Shown in pieces: positions 8,815-58,068 of a stretch of DNA of 64,000 bases (the first letter of the stretch is position 1; the number at the start of each line of letters is the position of its first letter). The stretch covers positions 28,955,990-29,019,989 of the forward strand of contig NC_057734.1 in assembly GCF_004010195.1 (NCBI RefSeq), written 5' to 3'. Source of the stretch: Chiloscyllium plagiosum (Eukaryota). A model generated the notes under the pieces. It saw only the letters and a program-made list of their open reading frames with translations. It was not told where the DNA came from and searched no databases. The position numbers and the translations under genes are program-made.

Positions 8815-10207
8815 CAGATTTGTATCATCAATAGCCACAGATGAGGTGCCAGAGACTGGAGGTTGGCTCATGCGGTGCCACTATTGAAGACAGGTGGTAA
8901 GGAAAAGCCAGGGAATTATAGACCAGTGAGCCTGACATTGGTGGTGGGCATGTTGGAGGGCATTGGTGGAGGGAATCCTGAGGGAGAGGATTCATATGTT
9001 TTGAAAGGCAAGGACTGATTAGGGATAGTCAATGTGGCTTTGAGCATGGGAGATCATATCTCACTAATTTAATCAAGGTTTTTGAAGAAGTAACGAAGAG
9101 GACTGATGAAAACAAGACAGGTGGACGTGATCTATATAGACTTGAGTAAGGCTTTCAACAAGGTTCCTTGTGGTAGACTGATTGGCAAGAATCTGGATTA
9201 GTGGTGCTGGAAGAGCACAGCAGTTCAGGCAGCATCCAAAGAGCCTGAACTGCTGTGCTCTTCCAGCACCACTAATCCAGAATCTGGTTTCCAGCATCTG
9301 CAGTCATTGTTTTTACCTACCTGATTGGCAAGAATACATCACATGGAGTAGAAGGAGAACCAGCCACTTGGATACAAAACTGGCTCAAAGGTAGAAGACA
9401 GAGGGTGATGGTGGAAGGCTATTTTTCAGATTGGAGGGCTGTGACCAGTGGTGTTTCATAAGGATTGGTGCTGCGTCCACTGCCTTTTGTCATTTAGATA
9501 AATGCTTTAGGTGTGAACAGAGGAGGTGTAGTTAGGAAGTTTGCAGATGACACCAAAATCAGAGGTGTAGTGAAAAGTGAAGGTTACCTTAGATTAACAT
9601 GGGATCTTGATCAGATGGGCCAATGGGCTGAGGAGTGACAGATGGAGTTTAATTTAGGTAAATGTGAGGTGCTGCATTTTGGAAAGGCAAATCAGGGCAA
9701 GACGCTTAATGGTCAGGTCCTAGGGAGAGTTGCTGAACAAAGAGATCTTGGAGTGCAGGTTCATAGCTCCTTGAATGTGGAGTCACATGTAGATAGGATA
9801 GTGAAGAAGGTGTTTGGTACGCTTTCCTTTATTGGTCAGTGCATTGAGTATAGGGGTTAGGAGGTCACGTTGTGGCTGTACAGGATATTGGTTAGGCCAC
9901 TATTGGAATGCCACATGCAATTCTGATCTCCCTGCTTTAGGAAGGACGTTGTAAAACTTGAAAGGGTTCAGAGAAGATTTACAAGGATGTTGCCAGGGTT
10001 GGAGGGTTTGGGCTATAGGGAGAGGCTGAATAGGCTAGGGATGTTTTCCCAGGAGCATCAGAGGTTGAGGGGGGAACCTGATAGACATTTATAAAATCAT
10101 GAGTGGCATGGATAGGGCAAATAGACAATGTCTTTTCTCTGGGGTGAGGTATTCAAAGCTAGAGGCCGTAGGTTTAAGGTGAGAAGGGAAAGATTTAAAA
10201 GGGTCCC
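8815..10207 (+). mobile_element. HER1/CR1 LINE ORF2 RT region, 5'-truncated, carrying a nested PLE hairpin
   Basis: PEDWR...GNYRPVSLT, KFADDTKI and KCEVLHFG motifs; highly similar to 24822-26418. Confidence 0.9.
9193..9320 (+). mobile_element. PLE family A mini hairpin (128 bp)
   Basis: Perfect 38-bp arms 9193-9230 / 9243-9280, tail 9281-9320, perfect TSD ctgattggcaagaat at 9178-9192 and 9321-9335. Confidence 0.9.
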
Positions 10208-27720: not shown

Positions 27721-28426
27721 AAGAATCATAGAATTATTCATGAAGAAGGCCATTCAGTCCATCAATTTTGGTTTTTTTTGCCCAAATAGACAATTTCACA
27801 ATTTCCTACATTATACTCAATTTGCCAAATCTTTACGCACTCACTTAACCTATCTATATTCCTTGTGTCTTATGACCCCTTCACAACTTACACTCTTAAA
27901 TATTGTTGTTCCAACTAGCAAATTTAACAACCATAGCTTCAGCTCCCTCATCAAAGTCATTTTTTTAATTCTTAAAAAGGTTGAGGTTCCTGTAGCACAC
28001 CGCTCGTTATATCTTACCAACTAGAAAATGACTGATTTATATTTGTTTTCTGTTTCCTATTAGCTAGCCAGTATTCTACTTTCACAAATATACTCATCCA
28101 ATAGCTTTTATCTTCTACAATAGCCTTTGAGGCAGCACCTTATCAAATATCTTTTGGAACTATCAGCACAGTTTACCCACCCATTTGTAAAACATGATCT
28201 CCCCTTCACAAAACTAGATTGATTTGCCTTGGGTTTCAATAGCTTCTACTATCGTCCTAACGACTGATGTATAGCTAAGTAGCCTGTTGTTTCCTGTTTT
28301 TGTCTTCCTCCTTTTTTGAATAAAGGAACTGTGTTCACTATTTTTTAATTTAATAGGATCTTTCCCTAACAAAAAAAGTTTGGAAAATTAATACCAATGC
28401 ATCAACTATTTCTATAACCATCAATT

Positions 28427-28924
28427 GGGAGGTGCCGGTGTTGGACTGGGGTGTACAAAGTTAATAATCACACAAAATCAGGTTATAGTCCAACAGGTTT
28501 GTTTGGAAGCACTAGCTTTCAGAGCACTGCTCCCCATTGTAAGACACAGAATTTATAGCAAAAGTTTACAGTGTGATGTAACTGAAATTGTACATTGAAA
28601 AAGAAGCGGATTGTTTGTTAAGTCTCTCATCTTTTAGAATGACCATGTTGGTTTCAGCTCTTTCATATGTTCTTAAAGTTCTTACACATGGAAGAACTGA
28701 AACCAACATGATCATGCTAAAAGATGAGAGACTTAACAAAAAATCTGGGTCTTTTTCAAGATATAATTTCAGTTACACCACACTGTAAACTTTTGCTATA
28801 AATTCTGTGTCTTACAATCTTATTCTCCACAATCACCTGATGAAGGAGCAGTGCTCTGAAAGTTAGTGCTTCCAAATAAACCTGTTGGACTATAACCTGA
28901 TTTTGTGTGATTATTAACTTTGTA
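28427..28924 (-). mobile_element. PLE family B hairpin insertion (~500 bp)
   Basis: Tail ~28427-28453, inverted arms ~28454-28670 / ~28685-28924, TSD tataaccatcaatt / tatagccattaatt (28413-28426, 28923-28936). Confidence 0.9.
28834..28868 (+). ncRNA. Minimal hammerhead ribozyme motif (family B)
   Basis: cac CTGATGA a ggagc agt gctct GAAA gt TA gtg. Confidence 0.7.
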
Positions 28925-44920: not shown

Positions 44921-45986
44921 AGCCACCAGGGTGATCCCCAAAGGCAGCTCATGAAGTGTCATTTTACTAATTGTTGATTCTGGCCACTGACCCAGCTCAG
45001 ATGATTGAACCTAAGTACCATGCATGTTAGCTTGCTAAACCAAATGGCACGGACCAAGGAGTAATCGTCAAACACTCGACAAATTCCAAACCTCTAAAAC
45101 ATTATAACATCAAATGGACACAGTAAAATACATAGATCTCGGGTTACAAACCCTGAAGATTGGACTAGACTTCCAGAGAGCTGCTTCTCACCAATAGTAG
45201 ATCTCATGTTCACCTTTGACTTCTTTCGCACCAAAAGGATAAAGAGTAAAAAAGTGGCGTGAATAAAAAAGATTGCAAGGATTGGTTGGGATGTGAAAAT
45301 CTGCCCCAGAAGGAAAAGTCAGTAAAGAAAACAGTAATATTTGGGGAATGAATATGAAAGTCAACCTGAAGCTCCATTTTGAAATCGAAAAGGTAAACTG
45401 AACAGTACGCCTCATTCACCAATTTTACCGTTTTCTCCTTCCAGGATGGTGAGGCTGTTCATGTTTGTTTTTGAGCATTAAAGAAGACCTCAGATTGGAA
45501 GAGGTGGAACTCACGGCACCAGTAACCCTCTCCACACACAGTGAGTCTCTAACTTTTGTCTGACCTCAGTAGCTCTTTCCTCTTTTAATCCAGTTGCCAT
45601 ACCATACCCTTTACACAGATTGCCCAGGCCCTGCAGAGCTCCCCATTTCCCTCAGCAGGTTTTTATATCTTGCTGCTCTCCCCATTTCGCTGCCTTCCCT
45701 TTCCTGGACTCCTTTGCAAATCTCATGCTCACTCCTGGGTCTGTCTCAGCCTTACTCCAAGCTGTTCCCATGAGGCCTTTCTTCAAAAGCTCATTTCATA
45801 CAGGTTCACTGGGTAGGGAGGGATAGCTGGGAGGCCCTCAAACGAAAGGTTAAAATTCCATCCTGTCGGCCAGTGGCTTTGGGGACCTGCTGCCTAAACC
45901 AGGTTTTAAATCACAAAAAAGTTGGGAATAGAGCAGGAAAAGTGGAGATTGTTAAAATAGTACACTGGATTTCAAAACACTGCTGT

Positions 45987-46133
45987 TTGCATTGCAAAAT
46001 AATCTGAAAGCAAACAGCTTCAAATCCTTTTGTGTCTAACTGACCGGAATTCTTTTCCAGGCAGGTTAAGACCCTGTTCCCAGAAGTGCATGCACTGATC
46101 CAAAACATAACTTTCATCTGATGACACTCTGGT
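45987..46133. repeat. Donor of an inverted duplicate found at 47030-47177
   Basis: Reverse complement aligns to 47030-47177 with about 20 differences in 148 positions by eye. Confidence 0.9.
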
Positions 46134-46906
46134 CATCAGCTGTAACGATGACTCTTCCTTGATGCTCCGTGACAGATTGTTGAAGATTGTCCATTCGACT
46201 GTCAGTCACACATCACAGCAGAACACTCCGCATATATTAAATGATTGGTTTGAAATCTGCTCCCTGGTGTCTTTGCTAGAATGCCAAAGCCAAAACTGCA
46301 AAGACAGGCGCTTTTTAAAAAAAATCTGATCCTGCGGGGTTTGATGTCATTAGATCATATCTTAGAGTACTGTGTTTGTTGTGGGTTTCATTCAATAGAC
46401 CATTTGGGAATGGATGCCATGTCTGTGTTTGTTTACTCTTGCCAGTATCACACTGAATGACATTGTAAGTGACAGGGACCCTTGCCACCACTGGGATCCA
46501 CAGACTGTGTTTAGGCCTTAGATTTCAATGCCGTTTAGCTGGCAACCTTCCAGTCACAGGCAATGAATCAAAGATTCTTTCACAGATGCCTTTTTTAAAA
46601 AAATTAAATGATATTCTGTTCTAACCTGATAAATTCCAACTGTGCAATTAATGGTTTCAAAAGGTTTTGTGCATTGTAAGGGGCAGAACAGAAACCTTCT
46701 GAGCCATCACTGCATACCACCCTGCAAAATTATATTTCAAGTTTCCTCAGGCAATTCTTTTTTGGGATATGTATGTTTCTATTTTGGGCTGACAATCCTC
46801 AATGTAATTTAATATCAGCATTTATTCAGAAGTAGCAATAAGATGACCTTGGCTTGGTTACATTGTTGTCTGACAATCTCTGCTGAACATGAATATTCCT
46901 GATTTG

Positions 46907-47177
46907 GTGGTGCTGGTGTTGGACTGGGGTGTACAAAATTAAAAATCATGCAATACCAGGTTATAGTTCAACAGGTTTATTTGGAAGCACTAGCTTACGG
47001 AGCACTGCTCCTTCATCAGGTGGTTGTGTACCAGAGTGTCATCAGATGAAGGATATGTTTTGGATCAGTTTGTGCACCTTGTGGGAACAGGGTCTTAATC
47101 TGCCAGGAAAAGAATTCCAGTCAATTAGGTACAAGAAGATTTAAAGACGTTTGCTTTCAAATTATTTTGCAATGCAA
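46907..47177 (-). mobile_element. Composite insertion: PLE family B 3' end (46907-47029) plus captured local DNA (47030-47177)
   Basis: Flanked by perfect 15-bp TSD aatattcctgatttg (46892-46906, 47176-47190). Confidence 0.85.
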
Positions 47178-48155
47178 TATTCCTGATTTGCTCTGATAAG
47201 TTGATGTCCCGAACAAACTAACTCCACCCCAAATTTGTGACTTTATTTTGGGGCAGCTCTTTAAGAAGTTATAGTATTCATATGTAAGGAAACTCAGGGA
47301 CCTGACACTTACAAAATAGTAATTTTATTGTCCCGCCTTCAGGGCCAATGGGTTAGGCAGGACAGTTGAATGAAACGTTAGAGTCTCTGCATGCTTTACG
47401 TGAATTTCATTCTACCCAATTCATTCAGCAGATCCTGAGATATTGAGACAGACACTTCCACTCGTGCGAGTCTCTGCCCAACTACTGGAGCCGTTAGATG
47501 TACAAGGGAAGATATTAATCCAACTGGCACTGGAAGAAAAGATGATTTAAACAGTGTTGTCAATGACTTCTGCCACACATGTTCTCCACATTTTAAAAAT
47601 TGACTGGAACTAATTTTCTAGAAAGCTCAAGTTTTTTTTTCTCTTGACGCATTGCTAAATTCAGGCAGAGTGACAGGAATTTGGCATCGCTGGCTGTCTA
47701 TAGTTTCCCGCTGTGGGTGACAAGTACACATCCCGCCCCTAGACCCATAAGCCAGTAGAATGATTAAACAGCAAAATAAATCATTTCAACCTATCCAAGC
47801 TATTCTTCTAATCTAAACCTTTTATTTTTCCAAACAGAATCAAATCAGGGGCCAGTGCTGAAAATAAATCTTTTGGCCTGAGGTCTAACTACCTGAAGCC
47901 ACTTAAAACCAGTCCCTCTGATCCCACTGTCTTCATGCCCTGTCCCAATCTTAACCTGCTCTTTTGAGCAGCGAAGTGAGAGACTTTCCAAGGAGCCAGC
48001 AGGTTGCTATGTTAAGAGTGCAGACCAGGCTCGATGGTCATGAGGACTCATCATTAAATTTTGGTTGGAGTCCTGAGCAGGAGACTATTTGGATCAATCC
48101 TATCGAAAGACAGATCAAGGGGGCAGCAGTAGCCCAGAAGGTAAATTCCTCTTGG

Positions 48156-48464
48156 GTCAGGAAGGCTGCTCTTGATGTGACACAGAAGCTAGCCTTGCAA
48201 AGGGTTCCTGACTGTATGATGTGGCAAAATACCTGGCCTTCTCCAAATTTCTTCCCCCAGCCATGGCCTGAGCCTCATCCCACAAGCTCAGTGCCAACAC
48301 AATTTTAACCCTTTCACCACAGTCAGGAAGGCTGCTCTTGATGTGACACAGAAGCTAGTCTTGCAAAGGGTTCCTGACTGTATGATGTGGCAAAATACCT
48401 GGCCTTCTCCAAATTTCTTCCCCCAGCCATGGCCTGAGCCTCATCCCACAAGCTCAGTGCCAAC
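48156..48464. repeat. 143-bp direct duplication with a 23-bp spacer
   Basis: 48156-48298 and 48322-48464 differ at one base; spacer acaattttaaccctttcaccaca. Confidence 0.95.
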
Positions 48465-48713: not shown

Positions 48714-50184
48714 CATGATTTGGAGGTGCCGGTACTGGACTGAAGTGGACAAAGTTAAAAATCACACAACACTAGGTTATATTCCAACAGGTTTATTTGG
48801 AAGCACGAGCTCTCGGAGCACTGCTCCTTCATCAGGTGGTTGTGGTGCAGAATCATAAGACACACAATTTATAGCAACAGGATTGCAGTGTCAGGGAATG
48901 TAATATTAAACAAATTTAGCTTAAGACTTTCATCTTTTAGAATGATGATGTTAGTTTTGGTTCCTTCATATATAAATCCCATAACTTGTTAAAAGTTACA
49001 TTCTCAAGGTAGCTTTTAACAATAGGTGCCATCTCAGCTCCAATCATGTTAGGTCAGACTGATTCTGTTTCTAAAGTGAGAGTTACAGAATCTTGCATTG
49101 ATTTACGCAGTTTTTGAGCAAAGTAAAATGTAATTCTGCAAGTAAAAATTCACCCCACAAACTTAAATGTGTGTGTGTGTGTGCAGGGTAGACTGAGTGT
49201 GTGTGGGTGTGGGTGTTGGGGGGGTGGGGGTGGGCATGTCTGTGAGTGAATGTGTGTCTGTGTGTGTATGTCAGTGTGTCTGAGTTTAATGGGGTATACG
49301 TTAGTGAGAGGGTACGTGTGAGAGTGTGGAGGGATGGGAGTGCGTGCATATGAGAGAGAACTTGTTATGAGAGAAGGTGTGTGTGGATCTGGAGGAGTGT
49401 GTATATGTGCGCGTTACTGTAGCCTTTGCTCGGCCTTGCCACTGTACCATGTCTCAGGGCATCCTTGCCTGCAGCATGGATACGGGCAATGGATAAATGG
49501 ACACTGCACAACAATCGCCAGACAGGAGTGTTTGCTCCCAGTCGGGGAACACTTCAACAGTCCAGGACATTTGACCTCCCACCTCCACACACACACCCAC
49601 ATGCTCACAGTCACTCAGTCTACCCTGTACACACACACACACTTAAGTTTGTGGGTGGATTTGTACTTGGCAGAATTACATTTTATTTTGCTCAAAAACT
49701 GCATAAATCCATGCAAGATTCTGTAACTGCCATTTAGAAACAGAATCAGTCTGACCTAACACTGGGACACAGACAGACTTTAACTTCACACTTTCAATGC
49801 ATTATCTGAGCTGAGATGGCACCTATTGTTAAAAGCTATCTTGAGAATGTAACTTTTAAAAAGTTCTAGGATTTATATATGAAGGAACCAAAACTAACAT
49901 GGTCATTCTAAAAGGTGAAAGACTTAAGCTAAATTTGTTTAATATTACAATCCTGTTGCTATAAATTCTGTGTCTTACGATTCTGCTCCACAACCACCTG
50001 ATGAAGAAGCAGCGCTTCAAAAGCTAGTGCTTCCAAATAAATGGATTATAACCTGATGTGGAAATGCCGGTATCAGACTGGGGTGGACAAAGTTAAAAAT
50101 CACAAAACACCAGGTTATAGTCCAACAGGCTATTGTCCAAATAAACCTGATGGACTATAACCTGGTATTGTGTGATATTCAACG
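48714..50184 (-). mobile_element. PLE family B large hairpin with GIY-YIG remnants and a nested second terminus
   Basis: Arms ~48750-49200 / ~49610-50055, central CRQGCPETWYSG (minus) and WINGH...PVGEHF (plus), TSD tcattttgaaagt (48701-48713, 50185-50197). Confidence 0.85.
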
Positions 50185-50449
50185 TCATTTTGAAAGTTCT
50201 AAGGTGACTCTGTAAGTGTGACCCATTCCCCATTTTACTGGTTTTACCTTCTGGGCCAGCAGCCATTTATCTATCTGGTTGTGACTCTGGAAAGCTTGAG
50301 TTAAATAAGGTTGTGCATCCTTTCTGAGCTTTCTAGGTGTGTAACCCACATCCAGCTCCCATACACCATGCCTGCAACTCCACCCCATCGCTCCACCCAT
50401 CCCTTTAAAAAAACAGCAATCTACTCTGTAACTTTCGTAGCTTACTCCA

Positions 50450-57118: not shown

Positions 57119-58068
57119 NNNNNNNNNNNNNNNNNNNNNNNNNNNNNNNNNNNNNNNNNNNNNNNNNNNNNNNNNNNNNNNNNNNNNNNNNNNNNNNNNN
57201 NNNNNNNNNNNNNNNNNNNNNNNNNNNNNNNNNNNNNNNNNNNNNNNNNNNNNNNNNNNNNNNNNNNNNNNNNNNNNNNNNNNNNNNNNNNNNNNNNNNN
57301 NNNNNNNNNNNNNNNNNNNNNNNNNNNNNNNNNNNNNNNNNNNNNNNNNNNNNNNNNNNNNNNNNNNNNNNNNNNNNNNNNNNNNNNNNNNNNNNNNNNN
57401 NNNNNNNNNNNNNNNNNNNNNNNNNNNNNNNNNNNNNNNNNNNNNNNNNNNNNNNNNNNNNNNNNNNNNNNNNNNNNNNNNNNNNNNNNNNNNNNNNNNN
57501 NNNNNNNNNNNNNNNNNNNNNNNNNNNNNNNNNNNNNNNNNNNNNNNNNNNNNNNNNNNNNNNNNNNNNNNNNNNNNNNNNNNNNNNNNNNNNNNNNNNN
57601 NNNNNNNNNNNNNNNNNNNNNNNNNNNNNNNNNNNNNNNNNNNNNNNNNNNNNNNNNNNNNNNNNNNNNNNNNNNNNNNNNNNNNNNNNNNNNNNNNNNN
57701 NNNNNNNNNNNNNNNNNNNNNNNNNNNNNNNNNNNNNNNNNNNNNNNNNNNNNNNNNNNNNNNNNNNNNNNNNNNNNNNNNNNNNNNNNNNNNNNNNNNN
57801 NNNNNNNNNNNNNNNNNNNNNNNNNNNNNNNNNNNNNNNNNNNNNNNNNNNNNNNNNNNNNNNNNNNNNNNNNNNNNNNNNNNNNNNNNNNNNNNNNNNN
57901 NNNNNNNNNNNNNNNNNNNNNNNNNNNNNNNNNNNNNNNNNNNNNNNNNNNNNNNNNNNNNNNNNNNNNNNNNNNNNNNNNNNNNNNNNNNNNNNNNNNN
58001 NNNNNNNNNNNNNNNNNNNNNNNNNNNNNNNNNNNNNNNNNNNNNNNNNNNNNNNNNNNNNNNNNNNN
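57119..58068. other. Assembly gap (950 N)
   Basis: Run of N. Confidence 1.

Follow-up and report, generated by a model that had tools for sequence, protein, structure and literature searches.

Copies of Flanking DNA Captured within Penelope Element Insertions of the Bamboo Shark

Inverted duplications of flanking DNA have been described at LINE-1 (L1) insertions, where 0.3% plus 0.1% of the events in somatic cells carry an inverted duplication of 52–220 bp of flank (Nam et al., 2023, PMC10191854). These foldback inversions are somatic, and their donor lies 5' upstream of the target. Other L1 inverted duplications, in which the target-site duplication (TSD) is kept, have been explained by resection and self-annealing (bioRxiv 10.1101/2024.12.14.628481). 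With R2 PRINT, snap-back 5' junctions arise when the cDNA 3' end primes on the cDNA and, less often, on nearby target DNA, often after full-length cDNA has been made (PMC11371274). DNA polymerase theta (Pol theta) also leaves templated insertions, generally shorter than 25 bp (PMC12426944).

The known Penelope units share a 30–40-bp tail at one end, an inverted tail-less arm and a TSD (PMC3846280, PMC8557442, PMC11167929). In rotifer Penelope elements, unrelated DNA lies between pLTRs inside TSDs, and the accessible text gives no local donor (PMC3846280). In the parts of these papers that are accessible, captured DNA is read as trans-mobilisation or read-through and is not traced to the element's own flank. 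The accessible part of PMC9977147 likewise holds nothing on flank-derived capture. A literature search, with supplements and most subscription papers outside its range, found no report tracing Penelope-captured DNA to the flank of its own insertion. How Penelope elements finish integration and why inverted arms form are described as open in the available text of PMC8557442 and PMC11167929.

Here, one insertion in the bamboo shark and its sisters are compared with these systems; the window is the whole 64,000-nt stretch of DNA that was analysed (Table 1). The analysis supports a real and recurrent phenomenon, in which a single event probably put an element end and a local copy inside one TSD. 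The mechanism is of a known kind, and the same outcome has been published for LINE-1 and R2. What is new is its occurrence with a Penelope element, fixed in the germline, with donors on both sides and with chains of copies between two oppositely primed arms.

Table 1. Coordinates of the focal insertion (window positions) and of related loci.
Feature	Coordinates	Strand	Remark
Left TSD copy	46892-46906	+	last 7 nt (46900-46906) are the family's terminal letters
5'-truncated 3' end of Penelope/Poseidon-type element, 130 nt	46900-47029	-	
Tail of focal element, ~37 nt	46900-46936		pLTR end comes next
Minimal hammerhead motif	46988-47022	-	read from sequence; helix II folds
Captured inverted copy of 45987-46133, 148 nt	47030-47177	-	
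Right TSD copy	47176-47190	+	first 2 nt common to captured copy
Donor, single-copy intronic DNA	45987-46133	+	near end ~760 nt from left TSD
TMEM132C/D-like gene, first coding intron (~289 kb)	covers whole window 1-64000	-	
L164 insertion	L164:4203-5027 = G000:C1:15421712-15422536		clearest single witness for DNA templates
Cases at fragments taken to be LINE-like	L223:2135-2370 (donor 2735-2881); L127:2150-2304 (donor 1865-1942); G000:C25 ~29,222,000-29,222,720		

The two copies of the direct repeat are identical at 15/15 positions, as a first-pass annotation had stated in calling a perfect 15-bp TSD. That annotation began the element at 46907; the last seven letters of the sister elements are the last seven of the left repeat, so the element starts at 46900 and the true TSD measures 8–15 bp. 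The TSD and the element end thus overlap by up to 7 nt, and an overlap of at least 7 nt was seen in 7/176 TSD-resolved sisters. The captured segment matches the reverse complement of its donor in 129 of 148 columns (87.2%, against some 86% judged by eye before), with 13 transitions, 5 transversions and one gap (E ~1e-44 in a search within the 64-kb window). Homology ends abruptly on both sides, and the alignment agrees with the earlier reading that the final 2 nt are common to the right TSD. When 45900-46230 was searched against the genome, both candidates found (2/2) were the donor and the copy, and the donor is as unique as it had looked. The element end, searched as a control, gave 1748 candidates, which shows that the donor search can detect repeats; an origin of the 148 nt from a dispersed repeat or from the interior of a subfamily is thereby ruled out. 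An 8-bp hairpin at 46118-46139 spans the near end of the donor and holds the same seven letters as the hammerhead core, which may be chance.

The putative hammerhead consists of the core CUGAUGA (47019-47013), helix II (47011-46999) and a palindromic AGCU, and its GAAA has decayed to GUAA in the focal copy; Rfam gave 0 hits at the gathering score for this motif. Its cut would fall between 46991 and 46990, 26 nt past the AUG of the core. Ribozyme cleavage is ruled out as the source of the junction between element and copy, which lies 38 nt upstream of that predicted cut.

Exon 2 of the TMEM132 gene was found ~9.2 kb left of the window on the minus strand (Pfam PF15705, PF23481), and exon 1, the first coding exon, ~215 kb right of it, where 28/28 residues match P0001; the protein used is 100% identical to the exon, and its source label is the bamboo shark Chiloscyllium plagiosum. 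Because exons flank the window on the minus strand, the insertion lies in an intron of a gene whose pre-mRNA is minus-strand. As to expression, no RNA holder was listed for the locus, and run X21 gave only repeat reads, in 3/30 bins. The focal copy has the look of neutral intron DNA.

Contigs from a second individual and from two other organisms (B and C) hold the donor, the left TSD with the start of the element, and 47040-47600 in one piece. The contigs of B and C extend 28–29 letters into the element; among the contigs listed, none crosses the element/copy junction and none spans the complete stretch, the pieces being present in separate contigs. Their presence in another individual and two other organisms rules out an assembly artefact, and their presence in B and C makes the capture older than their split; B and C are ~3% divergent (30 differing letters of 943). 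The earlier proposal to look for an empty site in relatives turned up the filled site in both B and C, and no empty site was seen in the second individual or in these two organisms. Nowhere did the 148 nt prove to be a dispersed or subfamily repeat, and neither B nor C showed the inverted copy without the element end. The contigs of B and C both break at the mirror positions 46123 and 47040, as expected if donor and copy have an exact 30-mer in common there in B and C (2 mismatches in this genome). Position 46004 is T, the letter of the copy, in X5, X10 and X17.

The focal arm departs from the commonest letter of its sisters in 7/118 columns (5.9%), and donor and copy differ by 18 substitutions in 147 columns (6.1% per copy). 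The ages of arm and captured copy agree, on estimates too coarse to split close events. The computed probability that a 15-bp TSD would still be intact at that age is 0.14.

Upstream of the shared 3' end, long sisters have RT-like frames followed by GIY-YIG-like ones, and a frame flagged as RT- or GIY-YIG-like was present in 11/30 loci examined. Frames of L115, L107, L119 and L122 have two cysteines between GIY and YIG, a criterion taken from PMC8557442. In the ESM Atlas, one frame scored 0.97 and 0.96 to clusters with PF01541 in 34–40%; in Pfam, five decayed frames gave only RVT_1, in 1/5 and below the cut-off (E 0.0011), and a PDB search with family frames gave no match. The family is probably of the endonuclease-bearing Penelope/Poseidon type, a label based on domain order, anatomy and spacing like that of Anolis PAc, not on a tree. 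By inspection, the pLTR of the family contains a minimal hammerhead, with its core, a helix II of 5–6 bp and palindromic 15.2-16.2, following the criteria of PMC4209133. The predicted cut 26 nt past the core AUG and the end of the tail 117 nt from that AUG are both spaced as in Anolis PAc (PMC11167929).

A 32-letter tail pattern occurs at 9104 places in the genome (control pattern, 0). Two-armed, head-to-head insertions account for 133/176 TSD-resolved sisters, which bears out the earlier remark that many sisters have an inverted arm at the position of the captured copy. The second arm starts at column 34–44 in 115/133, i.e., it is tail-less. Such a pair of one tail arm and one tail-less arm fits priming at two ends, at two RT start sites, better than the fold-back of a single cDNA; the Anolis protein both cuts and extends the two strands. 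Arm lengths peak at 120–135 nt from the tail (95/257 ends in the unbiased part of the sample), just upstream of the hammerhead core and ~30–45 nt upstream of the cut site, and this peak may mark where a short template RNA has its 5' end. Sister TSDs are most commonly 12–13 bp long and are A+T-rich (68% vs 58%). Two-armed examples within the window, in which either arm may be short or long, lie at 1344-1514, 28423-28924 and 48716-50185. A run of 950 N occupies window positions 57119-58068.

The sister scan covered 269 records of 1.91 Mb in total (one contiguous block of 664 kb with the window inside it, 60 × 10 kb, and ~3 kb at each of 208 loci), with 321 distinct tail ends, 320 of them besides the focal one. 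In a first pass 292 ends were analysable and 29 were left out (short flanks, tandem context, running off the record); in a second pass 310 were analysable, 176 with a resolved TSD, 27 of these 176 coming from sets picked by likeness to a query. Flanks of at least 3 kb on both sides were available at 55/176 TSD-resolved sites, and donor distances are bounded accordingly. Five further captures were found among the 320 other tail ends, none of them selected for its junction. They are mostly 77–290 nt long, with donors ~0.07–1.1 kb from the break, on either side, inverted or direct, and most captures sit where two head-to-head arms meet.

In L123, a 13-bp TSD encloses two arms, one with and one without the tail, and between them 214 nt copied in inverted orientation from the flank on the tail side (~0.2 kb away); the donor spans the junction of two repeats and is the sole full-length genome match. 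L288 carries ~200 nt, inverted, from the far flank at 0.54 kb, between two arms, and L331 carries 77 nt, inverted, from the far flank at 1.08 kb. In these three, a genome-wide search found no full-length match other than the local donor, which was also the best. In L228, 239 nt of the far flank, from 1.02 kb away, are repeated in direct orientation; the next-best match within the 1.9-Mb sample measures at most 155 nt. In all four (L123, L288, L228 and L331), flank copy and element lie inside one TSD. L164 is composite: an arm is followed by four alternating flank pieces (left-inverted 21, right-direct 50, left-inverted 290 and right-direct 164 nt; donor checked in the 1.9 Mb) and then by more element, including a second tail arm. 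Its three inner switches show overlaps of 1–2 nt, and its TSD is 10 bp with one mismatch plus 4 extra letters; it was overlooked by the TSD caller and picked up in the background scan. The capture rate is 4/175 resolved sisters, or 2.3% (95% interval 0.6–5.8%), or 5/320 ends, 1.6% (0.5–3.6%), with L118, L213, L275 and L273 not counted among the captures.

Several candidates were rejected. L131 has 596 nt in a possible TSD, with no full-length donor in 14 kb of extra flank or genome-wide, and L135 was dropped with no local source. In L189, a family element lies inside a larger inverted duplication. In L195, L202 and two cases in the contiguous region, a SINE-like sequence had inserted later and is flanked by element to either side; at L176, L230 and L280 the duplication was not at the junction; L299/L300 is a tandem duplication; and L143 and others have repeat-rich flanks. 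Arm-to-arm spacers of 8–22 nt gave no flank match longer than 10 nt. No local donor was found for a 46-nt spacer in L167 or for a SINE-like piece of 88 nt that separates two arms ~1.8 kb beyond the right-hand end of the window. Jumps to other RNAs or to distant DNA are possible for these two and for L131.

Local duplications in general were counted by a blind scan for pairs of at least 70 nt and at least 86% identity, 60–1500 nt apart, in 1.86 Mb. It returned 83 pairs, 34 of which beat any non-local match. By reading, these 34 comprise 6 rows at family junctions (focal, L123, L288, L164), 9 rows that are arrays and 19 rows that represent ~17 other events, which means that the genome has other duplication routes too. 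With 16 events used, chance abutment is expected 0.34 times at 320 arm ends; three abutments were seen in the same scan without the focal one (P ~0.005). Four local inverted duplications of 186–347 nt lie off family junctions (L207:1158-1672, L209:3441-4159, L290:523-1228 and L189:3614-4829). Inverted copies of near unique DNA also abut, or lie inside, fragments that we take to be LINE-like, in L223, L127 and the contiguous region, and no clear TSD was found at these three. This suggests that the copying process is not special to Penelope elements.

The single TSD and the five further captures support the earlier suggestion that a polymerase switched to neighbouring DNA during one integration. 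The alternative offered beside it, a nascent local transcript as template, is not supported as it was worded: the host pre-mRNA is minus-strand, and an element cDNA that jumped onto it would yield a direct copy, not an inverted one. A jump onto the sense TMEM132 pre-mRNA is excluded on this ground. L164 alternates between flanks, which means that one growing strand read both genomic strands, namely those with 3' ends; if the alternating pieces all came from one end, a single RNA strand could not have given rise to them, and we infer that the template was DNA. Every captured piece can be read as synthesis leaving the break along the 3'-overhang strand, a geometry that can always be satisfied if either end primes and is no test by itself.

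Among five captures tested, junction homology is clear in one, borderline in two and at background in two, the focal one included. In L288, extended imperfect homology at the break-proximal junction was equalled by 0/285 controls. L228 (5–16% of controls as good) and L123 (4% at 12 nt, 31–52% at longer lengths) are borderline, and L331 (30–32% of controls) and the focal site (7–13% of control positions) are at background. A three-island interrupted homology between the cDNA end and the donor is striking to the eye and is not significant.

We consider it fairly probable that the focal copy arose by insertion-linked, DNA-templated copying on resected break ends, the polymerase probably being a host repair enzyme. 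After a staggered cut, 130 nt would have been reverse-transcribed, starting from the 3' terminus at 46906. The unsealed left end would then be resected for 760–905 nt, leaving the plus strand single, and the cDNA end would anneal to that strand at ~46134, with no more than 2 exact bases of pairing, and be extended away from the break to 45987. The new end would finally release and anneal through 2 nt to the 3' tip of the overhang on the right, so that the TSD stays whole. In most sisters the right end bears a second, tail-less cDNA arm instead, and captured DNA lies at the point where the arms meet.

Had the element merely inserted, by coincidence, next to an inverted duplication already present, the ~17 duplications off family junctions, and L189 with its element inside a larger inverted duplication, would be the kind of material required. 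One TSD, however, surrounds both parts, no second TSD surrounds the element alone, and chance abutments are expected only ~0.35 times in 320, which makes such a coincidence extremely improbable. A two-step history, in which a plain two-armed hairpin formed first and was later broken and patched from nearby DNA that replaced the whole second arm, draws on the abundance of palindromic sisters (133/176 resolved), on the fragility of palindromes, on the position of most captures at the hairpin centre and on age estimates too coarse to separate close events. Against it speak the focal patch, which runs right up to the opening base of an undamaged 15-bp TSD and leaves no remnant of a second arm, the agreement in age of arm and copy, and the end of the focal arm within the usual length peak; we think it quite unlikely.

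The template could also have been nascent minus-strand TMEM132 pre-mRNA, which would have taken the role of a second element RNA, with reverse transcription primed by the second target end. The site is intronic, copying a minus-strand RNA from the right end would yield just such an inverted copy, sisters carry their second arm in that slot, and one L1 case of such a kind is reported (PMC10191854). Against this, homology between the right end and the donor is at background (40–57% of controls as good), L164 requires both strands and L288 shows priming by the cDNA end, and we judge this origin very unlikely. A further reading keeps the DNA template and gives the copying to the element's own RT, which at the 5' end of a short RNA would jump to single-stranded flank DNA near the break. 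It accords with the narrow arm-end peak at 120–135 nt, which includes the focal junction (130 nt) and resembles run-off at an RNA end, with the scant junction homology of most cases, with tracts that are long for Pol theta, and with the Anolis protein, which can begin synthesis where primer and template share no homology and which extends both strands (PMC11167929). The same resection is nevertheless needed to expose a template 0.2–1.1 kb away, and similar copies adjoin LINE fragments in this genome. Moreover, the L1 cases are attributed to DNA polymerases (PMC10191854), and the literature text examined does not show a Penelope RT jumping onto a DNA template. Copying by the element's RT seems unlikely to us.

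Compared with the L1 foldback inversions, the shark captures are germline-fixed and come to ~1.6–2.3% of the sample, with donors on both sides, both orientations and chains. They resemble the L1 resection model in the resected end, the ~2-bp homology, the kept TSD and the remodelling of either end; in L1 the reciprocal end and small hairpins are involved, as far as the accessible text goes, whereas the focal donor is tail-side and 760 nt away (bioRxiv 10.1101/2024.12.14.628481). R2 PRINT is engineered and site-specific, operates in human cells and, in its accessible text, comes without a natural fossil series (PMC11371274). Pol theta insertions are alike in flank templating, minimal homology and iterative patchworks like that of L164, whereas the tracts here are of 77–290 nt (in L164 also 21 and 50 nt) with donors up to 1.1 kb away (PMC12426944). 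The 148 nt of the focal copy and the 77–290-nt tracts of the sisters are longer than the short tracts that characterise the Pol theta class.

These fossils imply that the two ends are left unsealed for long enough that flank DNA as far as ~1 kb off can be copied, and that such copying runs either way and leaves the TSD whole. The first-pass annotation had seen in the focal insertion a route to short-range inverted duplications of host sequence; the route is recurrent, with five more cases, and that description was too narrow, as copies are also direct and far-side. The effect on the genome is modest: more than 9,000 exact tail matches imply a minimum of one to two hundred duplications of this kind, with thousands likely by extrapolation from 28 ends in 664 kb. 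It is conceivable, if doubtful, that Penelope primes both cut ends, the tail arm at one RT start site and the tail-less arm at the other, and that its two free cDNA ends, driven by its own RT, would hit exposed flank DNA several-fold more often than LINE-1 does; short local duplications from this source would then number in the thousands in shark genomes and would serve as a fossil ruler of germline resection length. Elsewhere in the window, 48156-48464 holds a recent near-tandem duplication of 143 nt × 2, 99% identical, with a spacing of 166.
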